From: Alphaproteobacteria bacterium
GTDB taxonomy: Bacteria > Pseudomonadota > Alphaproteobacteria > SP197
Length of the DNA stretch: 64,000 nt
Reading direction: 5' to 3'
Assembly: GCA_964291265.2 (NCBI GenBank)
Contig: OZ219747.1
Location: 3,936,001-4,000,000, forward strand
A program made the translations under genes and the position numbers. Positions 30,195 to 37,065 of the stretch are shown here, piece by piece. Positions within the stretch are counted from its first letter, which is position 1. Every line of letters starts with the position of its first letter. The notes beneath the pieces are model-generated. The model saw only the letters and a program-made list of their open reading frames with translations, was not told the origin of the DNA and made no database searches.

Positions 30195-30477
30195 TCCATT
30201 TCCTCATTCAGAACACCGGAACAGGCGCACGATCATGGTGCAATCCCTGGCTCCAGACAACCGCAGGCGGTGAGGGGGTCGTGTCTCTGCAGTTCTCCAG
30301 CGCATACTGAGAGAAGGATCCGTGCTGCACACGAAGAGCGTCTCCCCATGGGATTGGTTGGGTGATTGTATCGTTGACTGAAAGGCGATGTTGCGGGATG
30401 TGTTGCGGGATGATGCGCGTGTGGTTTGGGGCCGCCTGCTCCGCCTCACTAAACGGCCAATGGAGGGCCGACCGCGC

Positions 30478-31186
30478 ATGACGGACGATACCGAACACCG
30501 GCAGATTGTCTATCGGCTGCTTCCCGGGTCCCGGGAGAAGGCACGCAAGTTGGCTGCCCTTACGGACGCTTGCCGCTTCGTCTGGAACGCCATGCTCGAC
30601 CGGCTTCGAGCAACTCGTTGCCGCGGCGAGACTGGCGGGAGCGGAACGGCTGCCGAGCGTTTCGTTCTTCACGCTCGGCAAGGCATTCACACGGCTTCGC
30701 CGGTTTGCGCCGTGGTTGCAGGGGATGCCGTGTGCGCTTGAGCGCTCTGTCCTCCAGTACCAGGCGGGTGCGTGGCAACGATGTTTCAGGGGGCTGAGGC
30801 GGCCGCCCGAAATGCAAGCGGCGCGGGCATGACAGCGTGACGCTCCCGGACGCCATCCGCATCCTTCAGACGGCACGCTCCACGTTCAGGAAGATCGGGC
30901 CGATGACGCTGCGCCGCAGGGGAGGGAACCCATGCTCCGACGGCGTATCGGTCCGCGCCGTCATCAATCAGGCGGATTGACGGCACGTGGCATGCGATCC
31001 GCCCGCTGCAGGATGGCGGCTGTCGCGCACCGGCGACGATGGCGCCGTGACCGGCATCGACATGAACGTGGGCCAGGTGGCCACCAGCTTCATGCACCGG
31101 TGACGGACCGCCTCGAAGCGCGATGCCAGCGGTGGCAGCGCAGGATGTCGCGCGGCAGCAGGCGGCGTGAACGCACCCGCCGCCGC
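30478..31186 (+). pseudogene. tnpB: tnpB 5' part, frameshifted
   Basis: YRLLPGSREKARKLAALTDACRFVWN, SFFTLGKAFTRLR, RuvC-I VTGIDMNVGQ. Confidence 0.78.
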
Positions 31187-31254
31187 TGTTGATGGCTGCA
31201 TAGAACGGCGGGATTTCGGCGATTTGCCGCGCTTTGTCAGGGTCGTGTTTCTTC

Positions 31255-31293
31255 CCTGTTGTCAGGTCCTATTGTCACGTCCTGTTGTCGTGG
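31255..31293 (+). repeat. Three 13-bp-period tandem repeats CCT(A/G)TTGTC
   Basis: cctgttgtcaggt / cctattgtcacgt / cctgttgtcgtgg; a further copy at ~31339. Confidence 0.7.
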
Positions 31294-31540
31294 TTTGAGT
31301 GTTCGGCTGGTTGTCTCCCCGAGCGCCGCCCGTCTTTTCCTATTGTCGTTTTGGTCCGGTTCGGGTTGTTCCGTCGGCCTCTGCTTCGGTCTTGGTGACG
31401 GTTGCCGGGAGGGTTCCGGTTCCGAGGCACTCGCGGGATCGTCTGTCTTCCCTGTGGTCTGGGTCGCGTTGTCCGGTCCCGGGGCGGCGACTTTGCCGCC
31501 GCCCCGGGTGGATGCTAGATCGGCATCGAAAGAAAGAGCG

Positions 31541-32149
31541 ATGCGATGCCGGGCAGAGTTTTACCGACGCCCCCCGGCGCAGCACCCGGACGAGCCGGTC
31601 ACGGGGGACCGAACTCCCGTGTATTGTCGAGCCATTTTGCGTCCGGGTCCACCCCCGCTCTCGAGACGGATCGTGTGCACGACGGGACGACTGTTCAACT
31701 GCAAGCGGTGTCAGCGGCAGGTTGTTCTCTGCCGGTCGTGTGACCGGGGGCATGTGTATTGCTCCGATGAGTGCAGGGAATCGTCCCAGAGCGAGCAGCA
31801 CCGCGTGTCGCAGCGTCGCTATCAGAGCACGCCGAAGGGCTGTGAGGCGGGCCGTCGCCGTCAGGAGCGTTATCGGCGCCGCCAGGGGGACCGGGCGCGT
31901 GCGTTGAAGGCCATGGCGACGATGGTTGCCGAGATCATGGACACGCAGACGTCTGCTGTGGTGCTGCTTGGCGACGTTCCGGCGGTGTCTGGAGACGCCG
32001 GTTCCGAAGAAATCGTTACTGATCACCCTTCCCGACTGCTGCCGACCTCCCTACCTGCGGTTGTGAAGGCGCGAGAGCGGCGCGAATCGCCGCTTCGGTG
32101 CGCCCGGTGCGGACGGGTCGTGACGCATGTGGTGCTGAGGGACCCGTGA
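31541..32149 (+). CDS. Cys-rich (zinc-finger-like) hypothetical protein upstream of istA
   Basis: CKRC..CRSCDRGHVYCSDEC, basic helix, C-terminal CARC; start uncertain. Confidence 0.65.
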   Translation: MRCRAEFYRRPPAQHPDEPVTGDRTPVYCRAILRPGPPPLSRRIVCTTGRLFNCKRCQRQVVLCRSCDRGHVYCSDECRESSQSEQHRVSQRRYQSTPKGCEAGRRRQERYRRRQGDRARALKAMATMVAEIMDTQTSAVVLLGDVPAVSGDAGSEEIVTDHPSRLLPTSLPAVVKARERRESPLRCARCGRVVTHVVLRDP

Positions 32150-32181
32150 TGCGGCGTTGAGGAACCAGAGGGAGGGAGTTC

Positions 32182-33675
32182 ATGGCGATCGACGAGGACA
32201 CGCGGGCGACGATCGTGCGGCTGTCGCGGGCCGAGGGCTGGGCTGTGGGGACGATTGCCCGGCATCTCGGCGTGCACCACGGCACGGTGACGCGGGCGCT
32301 CAAGGCGTCGGGGCAGGAGCGGCGGCCGCGGGCCAAGCTCATCGACCCCTTCGTTGCCTTCCTCGGGGAGCGTCTTGAGGCGTCGCCGGACCTTCCGGCC
32401 AGCACGCTCTGGCGACAGGTCGTGGCCCTGGGCTACCGCGGCGGCGAGGATCACTTCCGTCACGACCTGCGCCGCCTCGGGCTGAGGCCGGTGAAGAGGC
32501 CCGAGCCGTCGCTGCGGCTGAGCTTCCTTCCGGGCGAGCAGGCGCAGGTTGACTGGGCCGAGTTCGGGAAGGTCCGCATTGGCCGGGCGGAGCGCAGGCT
32601 CATGGGGCTTCTCGTCACCCTCAGCTACTCGCGCCAGACTGTCCTGAGCCTGTTCCACGACGCGCGGATGGCCAGCTTCCTGCAAGGCCATGTCGAGGCT
32701 TTCGCGGCATTCGGGGGTGTGCCGCGGAGGCTTCTGTACGACAACCTGAAGAGTGCCGTGGTGACGCGCCGCGGCAAGGCGGTCACCTATCATCCGATGC
32801 TGCTCGGCCTTGCGGCCCACTATGCCTTCGAACCGAGCGCCGCCTGGCCCAGGAGCCCGCAGGAGAAGGGCCGCGTGGAACGCCGTGTGCGCTTCGCGCG
32901 CACCGGGTTCTTCGCCGGGCGCGACATCACGGTCCCGCTCGGCGAGCTCAACGCCGCAGTTCGGGAGTGGTGCTTCGGCGCCGCCGCGGAGCGGCCCTGG
33001 CCGGACGACGACAGTCTCCTGGTGCGGGACGCCTTCGCCCGGGAGAGGGAGCACCTGATCGTCCTTCCCGTCGACCCCTTCCCGCATCACGAGGTCCGCC
33101 CGGTGCGCATCGACAAGACCTGCCACGCCCGCTTCGACACCAACGACTACAGCGTTCCGGGTAGCTTCTCCAAGGCCCTGCTGACGCTGGTCGCCGACCG
33201 CGACGAGGTTCGCATCCTCGACGGCGCCGACGAGGTCGCGCGCCACCGACGCTCCTACGACAGGAAGCAGGCCGTCACCGATCCGGAGCATGCCAGGGCG
33301 ATCGCCGCGGGCAAGCGGCGGGCCCGCTCCATGAGCGTCCGCGACCGGGTCCTGCGCACCGTGCCGCGGGCCGAGGAGATGCTGGCGCGCGCCGGGACCA
33401 ACGGGCGCAACGTGGCCTCCTGCGCCCGGATGCTGGAGACGCTTCTCAACGCGCACGGCGCCGACGCTCTCGACCGGGCTGTCGCCACGGCGCTGGAGCG
33501 CGGCTCGTGCCACCCCGAAACCGTGCGCGTCATCATCGAGGAGCGCCGCCGGGAGCAGGGCCTGCCGCCCCTCAGCATCGCCGACGACGGCCGCGGCGGC
33601 CGTGGCACGACGCCGCGGGGGACCGCTCTCGACGCCTACGACAGGCCCGAAGCCAGCGCCAGGAACAAGACATGA
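32182..33675 (+). CDS. istA: IS21-family transposase IstA
   Basis: N-terminal HTH; DDE at QVDW, YDNLKS, EKGRVE; GGAG RBS. Confidence 0.93.
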   Translation: MAIDEDTRATIVRLSRAEGWAVGTIARHLGVHHGTVTRALKASGQERRPRAKLIDPFVAFLGERLEASPDLPASTLWRQVVALGYRGGEDHFRHDLRRLGLRPVKRPEPSLRLSFLPGEQAQVDWAEFGKVRIGRAERRLMGLLVTLSYSRQTVLSLFHDARMASFLQGHVEAFAAFGGVPRRLLYDNLKSAVVTRRGKAVTYHPMLLGLAAHYAFEPSAAWPRSPQEKGRVERRVRFARTGFFAGRDITVPLGELNAAVREWCFGAAAERPWPDDDSLLVRDAFAREREHLIVLPVDPFPHHEVRPVRIDKTCHARFDTNDYSVPGSFSKALLTLVADRDEVRILDGADEVARHRRSYDRKQAVTDPEHARAIAAGKRRARSMSVRDRVLRTVPRAEEMLARAGTNGRNVASCARMLETLLNAHGADALDRAVATALERGSCHPETVRVIIEERRREQGLPPLSIADDGRGGRGTTPRGTALDAYDRPEASARNKT

Positions 33676-34373
33676 GCGAGCTCAGGGAGCGTGCCCGGGC
33701 GCTCGGCCTCCACGGGCTCGTCGAACGCTGGGACGAGGTCGCCGGGACCGCATGGATCGAGGAGGTGGTCAGCGGCGAGGAACAGGCCCGCAGGGCCCGC
33801 AGCCACGAGCGCCGCCGCGCCGCGGCGCGGCTGCCCGCCTTCAAGCCCCTGGCGGACTTCGACTGGACATGGCCGCGCGACATCAGCCGGGCTCATGTCG
33901 AAGCGCTCCTCGGCCTCGGCTTCGTCGACCGTGCGGACAACGCCGTGCTCGTCGGCGGGCAGGGCACCGGAAAGACCATGATCGCCGCCAACGTGGCGCA
34001 CCAGGCCCTGCTGCACGGCCACACCGTCCGCTTCGAGAAGGCGCCGGAACTGCTCGAGGCACTCGCCGAGACCGTCTCGCGCAGCGAGCTGCGCCGCCGC
34101 CTCGCGATCCTCGCCAGGCCCCGCCTGCTCATCCTCGACGAAATCGGCTACGTGACCCTCGAAAGCCACCATGCCGACATCCTCTACGCCATCGTCTCGC
34201 GGCGCTATCAGCGCCGCTCGACCATGGTCACGACAAGCCTCGCCTTCGCCCAGTGGGACCGCGTCTTCCCCAGCGCCTCCGGCATCGCCGGCACCGTCGA
34301 CCGGCTCATGCACGACGCAACCCTCATCTCCATCGACAGCGACTCCTGGCGGCTCAGGCGTGAAACCCGATAA
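33672..34373 (+). CDS. istB: IS21-family helper ATPase IstB
   Basis: DFDW, Walker A GGQGTGKT, Walker B LILDEIGY, DRLMH; ATGA coupling to istA. Confidence 0.92.
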   Translation: MSELRERARALGLHGLVERWDEVAGTAWIEEVVSGEEQARRARSHERRRAAARLPAFKPLADFDWTWPRDISRAHVEALLGLGFVDRADNAVLVGGQGTGKTMIAANVAHQALLHGHTVRFEKAPELLEALAETVSRSELRRRLAILARPRLLILDEIGYVTLESHHADILYAIVSRRYQRRSTMVTTSLAFAQWDRVFPSASGIAGTVDRLMHDATLISIDSDSWRLRRETR

Positions 34374-35253
34374 ACCCCGCCGCGTCGACTTCGACGCCGT
34401 CAAGCGCATGCCGTTCGAACGCATCGCCGCCGACTGGGGATACGTCCGCGACGAACAGGCCTCGACACGCGCCAACCCCGTCCTGTGCGCACCCGGCCTG
34501 CCGAAGCTCGTCACGAAGTGCCTCAACAACGGACACTGGGTCTACTTCAACACCCAGAACGATGAAGACAACGGAACCGTCATCGACTTCATGCTCAACC
34601 GCGGACTGGCCTTCGCCGACATCTGCACCCGCTTCACAGCACCCGACACCGCGCCACGCGACTTCCGCAGCCTCTGGGCCGCGGCAACGCCCGATGCGGC
34701 CCCGGACTGGCTCACCGGGCGCGGCATCCTCCCGGAGACCCTCGACACCTGCCGCCCCCTGGTCCGCCGCGACCACAACGGACGCGTCCTCTTCGCCCAT
34801 CGCAACAGGAAGCGAAAGCTCACCGGCTTCGAGATCGGTCCCCCCGACGGACCGAAACGCTTCGCCACCGGTGGAACCCGAAGCCTGTTCGCCGTCCGCG
34901 CCGGAACCGCCGCGGACCTCGAGGCCCTCGTCATCACCGAAAGCGCCGTCGACGCCCTCAGCCTGGCCCAGATCGACCAATGTCCCCCCAGCCACGCCTT
35001 CCTCTCCACCGCCGGGGCACCCTCGCGAAGACAGCACGAACAGATCAGCCTCGCCGCAAGCAGCCTGCCCAACGTCAGGACCATCGTCCTCGCCCAGGAC
35101 CACGACGAGGCCGGAGAGCGACAGGCCGAAACCCTGCGCAAAAAGATGAAGCTCCCCTCCCACGTCTCGTTCCACAGACGCAGACCGCCGGAAAACGCCG
35201 ACTGGAACGACGTCGTCAACGCCAGGACCAAAGAACCACAAGCGAGATCATGA
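34360..35253 (+). CDS. DUF3991-TOPRIM primase-like protein
   Basis: YFN..DNGTVIDF, WLTGRGI, ITESAVDALS (catalytic E), AQDHDEAG (DxD), DWND. Confidence 0.8.
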   Translation: MKPDKPRRVDFDAVKRMPFERIAADWGYVRDEQASTRANPVLCAPGLPKLVTKCLNNGHWVYFNTQNDEDNGTVIDFMLNRGLAFADICTRFTAPDTAPRDFRSLWAAATPDAAPDWLTGRGILPETLDTCRPLVRRDHNGRVLFAHRNRKRKLTGFEIGPPDGPKRFATGGTRSLFAVRAGTAADLEALVITESAVDALSLAQIDQCPPSHAFLSTAGAPSRRQHEQISLAASSLPNVRTIVLAQDHDEAGERQAETLRKKMKLPSHVSFHRRRPPENADWNDVVNARTKEPQARS

Positions 35254-35570
35254 CCACGTCCGTCACAAGGAGACCACTCATGCCCCTCACGCCCGCCGAA
35301 AAGCAGCGGCGATACCGGGAACGGCGCAAGGCCGGCATCCCTCCCGTCCACACCCCAAAGCACCGTGACCGGCGCTCGCGACCGCAACGCTGGAACGACG
35401 CCGTGGCCGAACTGCGCGCCCTGCAGGACGAATGGCGTGACCGCCTCGACAGCATCCCCGAAAGCCTCCGTGACACGCCTTACGGAGAACGCCTGCAGAG
35501 CGTCGCCGATGCCGACATCGAGGCCCTCGAGGACATCGAACCGCCACGCGGCTACGGAAGGGATACGTGA
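35250..35570 (+). CDS. Small basic/helical hypothetical protein
   Basis: LTPAEKQRRYRER..RSRPQRW..PPRGYGRD; ATGA coupling to the TOPRIM gene. Confidence 0.7.
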   Translation: MTTSVTRRPLMPLTPAEKQRRYRERRKAGIPPVHTPKHRDRRSRPQRWNDAVAELRALQDEWRDRLDSIPESLRDTPYGERLQSVADADIEALEDIEPPRGYGRDT

Positions 35571-36140
35571 TCCCGCAAGACCCTTGAACGCGGTCACGCG
35601 TTACCATCCAGGAATGAGAACGTCTCACCCCGACGCGCCGCTCAGCCTCCCCGGGAAACTCCCGGGCCGTCCAAACGACACCGCATCACGAGACTGCCGC
35701 AGCCGCTGGCCGGACTGGCTTACAGGTCGCAGCATCCGCCCGAAAACACTCGACGCCTGCCGCACCCTGCAGGACGAATGGCGTGACCGCCTCGACAGCA
35801 TCCCCGAAACCCTCCGTGACACGCCTTACGGAGAACGCCTGCAGATCGTCGCCGATGCCGACATCGAGGCCCTCGAGGACATCGAACCGCCACGCGGCTA
35901 CGGAAGGGATACGTGATCCCGCAAGACCCTTGAACGCGGTCACGCGTTACCATCCAGGAATGAGAACGTCTCACCCCGACGCGCCGCTCAGCCTCCCCGG
36001 GAAACACCCAGGCCGTCCAAGCGACACCGCATCACGAGACTGCCGCAGCCTCTGAGCCGCAGAAACGCCCGATCCGCCGCCGGGCTGGCTCACAGGTCGC
36101 AGCATCCGCCCGAAAACACTCGACGCCTGCCGCACCCTGC
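35421..36140 (+). repeat. Near-identical tandem duplication, period 346 bp, running into a degenerate partial copy of the TOPRIM gene (to ~36320)
   Basis: CTGCAGGACGAATGG.. starts at 35421 and 35767; 36020-36320 resembles parts of 34640-35200. Confidence 0.85.
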
Positions 36141-36510
36141 GCCGCCGCCACCGCAACGCACGCAGCCTCTTCGCCCAGCGCAACAGAAACCGTCAGCTCT
36201 CCAGCCTCGAGATCGTCCCGCCCGACGAACCACGACGAGGACGGAGAACGCCAGAACAAGACCCCGCGCAAAAGCCTGAAGCTCCCCTCCCACATCACGT
36301 TCCACAAACGCCGACCGAAACGACATCGTCACAACGTCAACGTCAACGCAAGACCAATGGGATCCAACAATAGGCAGAAAGCAAAGACCGGGCGGACCTT
36401 CGTCCAATGCCGCACGTTCTCCTGTCGTGATCACCCACTCACACGATCAGCGCTCAAAAGAGCGGTTCTCCGCCAATATCCCGCCGTTCTAAATCGCCGC
36501 CGACAGCCGC

Positions 36511-36988
36511 CATGCCCGGACGGTGTGCAGGATGGCCATGAAACGGTGCAACCGGCAGCACCACGTCTCGCGGAAGCTGGCCGGCGGAACGGTCGTCGTG
36601 GAAGGTCCGAAGACCGCCAACATGACCAGGAGTGCAAAGGGCACGGTCGAGCATCCCGGGACGAACGTGAAGGCGAAGTCCGGGCTGAACCGCGGGATCC
36701 TCACCACCGTCTGGTGTTGAGTTGCGGGCGATGCTCGCCTGCAAGGCTCCACGCCTCGTCTGAGGTGAACGCGGCGCATGTCAGCCAGACGTGTGCGGAG
36801 TGCAACAACGACTTGACGCCGCCTCGCGTCCGTCGCAGGCGACATTCACATGCGTGGCCTCATGCCATGCGGACCTGAATGCGGCCCGCAACATCAGGCG
36901 CCGGGGACTGGCGCATCTGCACGGGGATGGAGCGTTGCCGCCAGGCACTCCGATGATCCGTGACACGGATCGCAGACTGGCGGCATGA
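36511..36988 (+). pseudogene. tnpB: tnpB 3' part with overlapping predicted omegaRNA
   Basis: HHVSRKL..VVEG.KTANMTRSAKGTVE, SQTCAEC, ADLNAARNIRRRG in shifting frames. Confidence 0.8.
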
Positions 36989-37065
36989 GCCTTTCAGTCA
37001 ACGATACAAGCTTCTGGTCAGTGACGGCCGGAGTGCCGTCAGCATGTGATCCACGTGCCGGATTT

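Follow-up and report, generated by a model that had tools for sequence, protein, structure and literature searches.

The 64,000-nucleotide window analysed here, from an alphaproteobacterium (assembly GCA_964291265.2, contig OZ219747.1, positions 3,936,001 to 4,000,000), contains at 31187-36505 an insertion sequence (IS) of 5319 bp that belongs to the IS21 family by its transposase, ATPase, ends and target duplication, and that carries directly behind istB a gene for a primase-like protein with a TOPRIM domain. This gene is no one-off, because it is conserved behind istB across a clade of related elements and was captured anew by another IS21 clade. There is about an even chance that the protein is an accessory that primes second-strand synthesis in copy-out transposition. 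The new part is thus an accessory primase-like gene in an IS21 member; transposase, ATPase, ends and duplication are as known for the family. The literature searched, which did not extend to subscription journals or ISfinder, describes no primase gene in IS21 or in any other IS.

Conservation of the TOPRIM gene across the clade

A scan for TOPRIM relatives, with one genome per species, yielded 66 loci in 20 assemblies, whose titles are Paracoccaceae, Rhodobacteraceae, Amylibacter, Rhodobacter, Alphaproteobacteria or, in one case, Acidimicrobiales; besides one Acidimicrobiales bin, the clade occurs in several groups of alphaproteobacteria. istB lies directly upstream of the TOPRIM gene in 62 of the 66 loci (19 of the 20 genomes), the remaining four being TOPRIM fragments. 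Eight further multi-copy families of 4.0-4.7 kb were delimited, and in each of them the gene lies between TG..CA ends. An earlier note on this stretch had proposed looking for istA-istB-TOPRIM synteny within IS21 ends in other genomes, and it is these loci and families that display it; the isolated capture that the same note had named as the contrary case is not what was found, the gene being kept across the clade and taken up again by a second one.

A reverse search was started from istB, to avoid counting only what a TOPRIM query selects. Eight clade-type istB copies occur in 22 other genomes of the genus (in G004, G009 and G016), and the TOPRIM gene follows all eight, once in truncated form; four other genomes have 4, 5, 5 and 1 istB copies, as many as they have TOPRIM loci, and a fifth has 29 istB copies. 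The clade is rare, being present in two of 151 relatives of G061. The TOPRIM gene is under purifying selection like istA and istB: the median ratio of nonsynonymous to synonymous substitution rates (dN/dS) was 0.42 for TOPRIM, 0.36 for istA and 0.35 for istB (55 non-independent pairs of 11 elements, by a simple counting method), and the clade TOPRIM proteins compared span 50-87% identity.

Layout of the element

The features of the element, with its open reading frames (ORFs), are as follows.

31182-31186: left 5-bp target-site duplication, GCCGC
31187-31236, plus strand: left terminal inverted repeat, beginning TGT, the likely IstA-binding end by comparison with IS5376 (available text of PMC10122671)
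31255-31289, plus strand: three CCT(A/G)TTGTC repeats with a 13-bp period, starting at 31255, 31268 and 31281
31339-31347, plus strand: fourth copy of the CCT(A/G)TTGTC 9-mer
31673-32149, plus strand: ORF1, Cys-rich putative zinc-finger protein, probable start
32182-33675, plus strand: istA, IS21 DDE transposase (D124, D187, E233)
33672-34373, plus strand: istB, AAA+ helper ATPase
34360-35253, plus strand: TOPRIM primase-like gene, 297 aa (Toprim_2 match and fold)
35250-35570, plus strand: ORF5, 106 aa, its start coupled to the TOPRIM gene by ATGA
35571-36455, plus strand: non-coding tail made up of duplicated, degenerate stretches from ORF5 and from the TOPRIM gene (81-98% alike)
36367-36374, minus strand: one copy of the repeat core in inverted orientation, at a distance of 132 nt from the right end
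36456-36505, minus strand: right terminal inverted repeat, plus-strand end ACA
36506-36510: right 5-bp target-site duplication, GCCGC

The element begins with TG and ends with CA, and all five ORFs lie on one strand, istA and istB overlapping by ATGA and istB and the TOPRIM gene by 14 nt. The TG..CA ends, the GCCGC duplication and the set of five genes are as the earlier note had described them, with the same 14-nt overlap and ATGA coupling; its DUF3991-TOPRIM label holds for the TOPRIM part (Toprim_2, 50 bits, over the cut-off), the DUF3991 match of 20.7 bits falling below the cut-off of 24.5. IstA matches the NCBIfam IS21 transposase NF033546 with 222 bits (cut-off 160), and its catalytic residues D124, D187 and E233 are invariant in 12 of 12 proteins. 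IstB matches Pfam IstB_IS21 (PF01695) with 172 bits (cut-off 24) and NCBIfam NF038214 with 192 bits, 8 below the cut-off of 200.

Like IS21 and IS5376, the element has TG..CA inverted repeats, a 5-bp duplication, an IstA DDE transposase and IstB AAA+ ATPase in one operon, and no strong target sequence. Classical IS21 elements measure 2-2.5 kb, whereas the window element, at 5.3 kb, adds the conserved ORF1, the primase-like gene, ORF5 and internal repeats of 13-14-bp period. The terminal inverted repeats are imperfect, about 50 bp long, and contain conserved, partly palindromic blocks in which a clean 23-bp period was not seen; IS21-family ends typically comprise two direct repeats (L1/L2 and R1/R2) spaced by about 23 bp. 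Terminal hairpins were considered and rejected, the arms being without co-variation by eye, and a promoter scan of the left end found none.

Fold and active site of the TOPRIM protein

The protein combines an N-terminal domain free of cysteine ligands with an RNA-polymerase (TOPRIM) domain of the T7/DnaG type. A structure model, with a predicted local distance difference test (pLDDT) score of 79, found DnaG and T7 primases as its top Foldseek matches. It superposed on the T7 gp4 primase with Z 15.1 and a root-mean-square deviation of 3.9 over 179 residues, and on the E. coli DnaG core with Z 13.0. By sequence, the family profile matches T7 gp4 with an E value of 2e-7 and aligns with the full length of the host DnaG at a probability of 94%. 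The N-terminal domain folded alone (pLDDT 89) had no Foldseek match, and its profile match to the DnaG zinc domain is weak (E 0.005, probability 7%).

As in DnaG and T7 gp4, the core fold carries an acidic metal-binding cluster, here E194, D198, D247, D249 and D281, the E, DxD and C-terminal D positions aligning with those of the known primases. The E and DxD motifs that the earlier note had read as intact are E194, D247 and D249; all 29 clade proteins have these three residues along with R121, R167 and R174, and 28 of the 29 have D281. The protein is best called primase-like, with a primase-core fold, metal-binding acids and a putative activity.

Repeated capture by transposons

The gene is found in other element types as well. 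A metagenome scan with an alignment of distant homologs gave 437 confirmed matches, and among the best 80 of these istB lies upstream of TOPRIM in 21 loci, its product being about 30% alike to the IstB of the window. The order in this second clade is istA-istB-TOPRIM, and in five loci (L174 3474-7046, L176, L181, L183 and L204) the gene stands within the inverted repeats of a compact 3.6-kb element. These repeats start with CCTCGGGG instead of TG; in one of the five loci the element is flanked by an 8-bp duplication.

In the TOPRIM tree the second IS21 group nests among non-IS proteins, and a single clade of all IS21-linked TOPRIM proteins was rejected by the approximately unbiased (AU) test (p-AU 0.009, 26 rows chosen from 53). 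The two TOPRIM-bearing clades also lie apart in the IstB tree, but long branches make one origin compatible with that tree. Because the AU test, which decides here over the IstB tree, rejects one IS21 clade, the gene was captured by IS21 at least twice independently. At one further locus (L177) a third IstA/IstB lineage has a second-clade TOPRIM gene just inside an IS21-like right end, and the gene thus seems to move between IS21 lineages.

A third element type, found in four genomes of the genus (G005, G013, G002 and G010), has a DDE transposase and an ExeA-like ATPase with the TOPRIM gene behind the latter. This element (L034 2647-6652 in G005, a genome with 15 TOPRIM matches; also L038, L039 and L040) is 4.0 kb long with TG..CA ends and encodes a Cys-rich ORF, a Mu/IS481-like DDE transposase, an ExeA-like AAA ATPase and a DUF3991-TOPRIM protein. 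The ExeA-type TOPRIM joins the window clade on a long branch, and a common origin with that clade is therefore possible. In three element types, then, the TOPRIM gene is coupled to an ATPase gene.

The non-IS relatives belong to another setting. Eleven of 12 sampled loci lie near a coupling protein, TrbI, RepA_C, TrfA, a topoisomerase or an integrase, and 85 of 119 plasmids with a TOPRIM match are typed conjugative, in agreement with the accounts of DUF3991 in the available text of PMC13055273 and PMC4073490. The DUF3991-TOPRIM proteins of conjugative plasmids and integrative and conjugative elements are 30-38% identical to the window protein over most of its length, with the same motifs and a cysteine-free N-terminal domain; the window gene differs in lying within a transposon, coupled to an ATPase gene and without transfer genes. 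No relative was found in the viral contigs searched.

Repeats inside the left end

The three repeats of 13-bp period that the earlier note had pointed out are present, and a fourth had been missed by it (31339). Three or more copies of CCT(A/G)TTGTC occurred in none of 20,000 simulated sequences. Among relatives the core CCYDTYGT lies 54-160 nt from the left end in nine of nine clade elements, in 1-8 copies with the first usually at about position 69, and it recurs inverted near the right end in five of the nine. It is absent from the ends of three delimited ORF1-bearing relatives without the TOPRIM gene, and from seven other IS21 controls except for one copy in two near-identical ones. CCYDTYGT is a conserved cis site of the window clade.

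That the repeats are ordinary IstA sites, as the earlier note had allowed, is a weak reading: they lie inward of the conserved terminal 50 bp, do not resemble the terminal repeat and have a period of 13-14 bp, against the 23 bp that separate the two terminal repeats bound by the IstA of IS5376 (available text of PMC10122671). Its term iteron-like finds no support either: the element has no Rep gene, and the repeats are 8-9 bp long with a 13-14-bp period. T7-type primase sites were considered, as the repeats contain GTC, and were rejected, the last C not being conserved in relatives.

Possible second-strand priming and its alternatives

Copy-out/paste-in transposition has been proposed for IS21 (PMC11208146; PMC3299598), and host replication is described as turning the single-strand bridge between the ends into a double-stranded circle (PMC7780238), as far as the available text of these sources goes. 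Replication through the bridged element would displace one strand, starting at the 5' end of that strand; the element's own TOPRIM protein would then prime the displaced strand, perhaps in the region of the CCYDTYGT repeats or within them, and this would raise the yield of circles or, once the element has entered a new host, make the step independent of the primosome there. Second-strand priming is favoured because it is the simplest job for a primase in a replicative single-strand step. IS3/IS911, IS30 and IS256 are alike in that replication converts a bridged intermediate to a circle, which the same sources propose for IS21, and differ in relying on host replication alone, the available text of these accounts describing no primase of their own.

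A wider proposal is put forward more tentatively, as a possible one: ATPase-assisted DDE transposons (the two IS21 clades and the ExeA-ATPase element) may repeatedly have acquired from conjugative elements a DnaG-type primase that is free of zinc, thereby becoming self-priming IS that start the second strand at element-specific sites, here CCYDTYGT, instead of waiting for the host primosome. IS21 is a structural model for ATPase-controlled transposition and has been described with two proteins, and the replication of the bridged copy-out intermediate into a circle has so far been ascribed to unnamed host factors. A primase-shaped protein within the element makes this replication step testable by the knockout of one gene. 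If true, priming would be the first function for the widespread DUF3991-TOPRIM family, and it may help to explain how a single element could come to make up 4% of a genome and pass from one bacterial family to another.

The base composition of the element is of interest in this respect. G+T falls from the 5' end of each strand, from 0.67 in the first 300 nt to 0.34 in the last 300 nt, and at four-fold sites it takes the values 0.60, 0.41, 0.28 and 0.18 in four successive stretches of genes on one strand, compared with 0.31 to 0.63 in host ORFs. Deamination would produce such a gradient on a strand whose displacement starts at the 5' end, and the gradient is consistent with the displacement proposed above. 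As a mark of the primase it was rejected, since IS21 elements of the genus that have no TOPRIM gene show it too and the second TOPRIM clade does not; it hints at a replicative, single-strand step in the window clade and says nothing specific on the TOPRIM gene. Among other families of the host genome (L229-L238), the gradient was seen in three IS66, one ISKra4-like and one ISAs1-like family and was weak or absent in two families of IS4 and one of IS1634. Replicative elements may thus be distinguishable from cut-and-paste ones by this feature of their sequence, the mechanisms of the compared families being taken from general knowledge; the literature search returned nothing on a G+T gradient as a mark of transposition mode.

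A number of points, besides this distribution of the gradient, weigh against priming. Recent rare changes among the copies have no strand bias. The closest plasmid-borne IS21 relatives (IstB 47-51%) are without the TOPRIM gene, two of them with 5-bp target duplications, and this IS21 subgroup can thus move without it; because such relatives exist, the gene is an accessory and not a requirement. In the protein the zinc ligands are absent, the CPFH and CFGC of the host DnaG aligning with ligand-free words, and D198 is Asn in 15 of 29 relatives. T7 Lys122, essential for binding nucleoside triphosphates (NTPs) and abolishing catalysis when lost (available text of PMC2910064), aligns with E158, and the arginine of the DnaG GGR motif aligns with G160, a position never basic in 29 of 29 proteins. 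The invariant R167 nearby might stand in for the missing NTP-binding residue. Nor does the 297-aa protein possess the C-terminal helicase or helicase-binding part of the known enzymes, and the host dnaG is intact. The term primase-like was preferred to DnaG-type primase because zinc ligands and NTP-binding basic residue are both missing. CCYDTYGT is absent from the ends of the second-clade elements (0 of 5) and of the G005 element, and no end-to-end junction of a circle or tandem was found in the host genome or the fetched loci. The suggestion of the earlier note that the element supplies its own priming activity is supported in part by the primase-core fold and the catalytic acids and called into question by the missing zinc ligands and NTP-binding residue and by TOPRIM-less relatives with target duplications.

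The same deficits could be explained if the protein were a non-priming DNA-binding adaptor on a primase scaffold, which binds CCYDTYGT or the displaced strand and either shields it, passes it on to the replisome of the host or acts as a regulator of the operon, with only a secondary part for catalysis. The missing zinc ligands and basic residue and the frequent Asn at position 198 are in line with this, as is the occurrence of CCYDTYGT at the left end of nine of nine clade elements and at neither end of the three ORF1-bearing TOPRIM-less relatives. But E194, D247 and D249 are invariant and D281 nearly so in the window clade, and the second clade and the ExeA-type element have the catalytic motifs too; acids kept in the clade and in two other element types argue for metal-dependent chemistry. 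With CCYDTYGT, moreover, absent from those two element types, an adaptor is rather unlikely.

The gene might act instead in horizontal spread, as plasmid primases do, by converting incoming single-stranded DNA that bears the element (or a cointegrate) in the recipient, with no part in copy-out. The coupling protein, TrbI, RepA_C, TrfA, topoisomerase or integrase beside the non-IS relatives in 11 of 12 sampled loci, the conjugative type of 85 of 119 plasmids, the co-induction of a DUF3991 gene with tra genes in pLPU83a (available text of PMC13055273) and the presence of the clade in several alphaproteobacterial groups and one Acidimicrobiales bin all favour this view. It is nevertheless improbable, as profile searches found no relaxase or transfer gene in the element and the TOPRIM gene is coupled to an ATPase gene in three element types.

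That the gene is cargo, picked up from plasmids beside an insertion and kept by hitch-hiking or by a host benefit unrelated to transposition, we regard as similarly improbable. IS21 relatives manage without it, ORF5 and other small genes ride behind istB as well, and plasmids are a common place for both partners; its dN/dS near the istA and istB values over 50-87% protein identity, its fixed position and overlap with istB and the at least two independent captures speak against cargo, and an enzyme of DNA metabolism is not a typical host-benefit gene. A last and very improbable reading makes the excised circle a self-replicating mini-replicon, in which the repeats would be iterons, IstB would initiate replication in the manner of DnaA and the TOPRIM protein would serve as primase. 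In its favour are the short direct repeats of regular period beside the end, the relationship of IstB to DnaA/DnaC and the mosaic copies that free copies might cause. Against it, profile searches of the five ORFs found no Rep or helicase family, the families differ in having from 1 to 8 repeats, and no circle junction occurs in the assemblies or in the contigs of three runs of one study (possibly including the source sample), where the element is deeply covered, though contigs drop rare forms. With neither Rep nor helicase gene nor junction, the maintenance of a circular intermediate envisaged by the earlier note likewise has no support.

ORF1, ORF5 and the surroundings of the element

ORF1 and ORF5 are not tied to the TOPRIM gene. 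ORF1 belongs to a large family (1,724 representatives) and precedes istA also in the plasmid-borne TOPRIM-less relatives, where an ORF of 60-70 aa takes the place of TOPRIM. That ORF1 is a zinc domain supplied in trans is weakened, as it occurs without TOPRIM and TOPRIM without it. Homologs of ORF5 (44-78%) stand behind istB in TOPRIM-less IS21 elements too, and ORF5 is full length in only one other delimited family; a role as partner of the TOPRIM protein was thus rejected. The probable start of ORF1 is GTG 31673, because earlier codons are stops in some copies and because, in the frame that opens at 31544, the alignment of most homologs begins only at about residue 44-50. The last ~900 bp of the element consist of rearranged duplicates of ORF5 and of the TOPRIM gene. 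The element lies within a tnpB-like (IS605 OrfB) gene that had a frameshift before the insertion and whose two parts are at 30388-31186 and 36511-36990.

Copies in the host genome

The element is mobile, multi-copy and active. The host genome (G000; 4.8 Mb, 2 contigs) holds 32 end-paired copies, about 98% alike and amounting to 4.1% of the genome, and 27 of them are flanked by target duplications (5 bp in 22, 6 bp in four and 7 bp in one), the other five having none. istA and istB are intact in all 32 copies, the TOPRIM gene in 31 and ORF5 in 29, being broken in three. Across the 30 full-length copies no gene varies less than TOPRIM, whose nucleotide diversity (pi) is 0.0014 against 0.0032 for istA. 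Five of the 32 copies sit within another copy, and the element, in this respect different from IS21 and IS5376, is therefore without evident target immunity. Short non-autonomous derivatives, which might reveal the required cis sites, were sought, and only solo end fragments were seen.

At G000:C2:4237410-4258494 the flank CGTGC is common to the left end of one copy and the right end of another, as for a 21-kb composite transposon or recombination between copies. The 30 full-length copies are mosaic, with 22 haplotypes, at least 34 recombination intervals and 52% of distant site pairs incompatible, and the 22 copies of G062 have 23 recombination intervals; either gene conversion between copies or assembly polishing could be the cause. 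Variation among the copies is concentrated near the ends. In the same host genome, multi-copy IS4 and ISAs1-like transposases (L234, L235 and L236) carry an N-terminal DruA (Druantia) domain.

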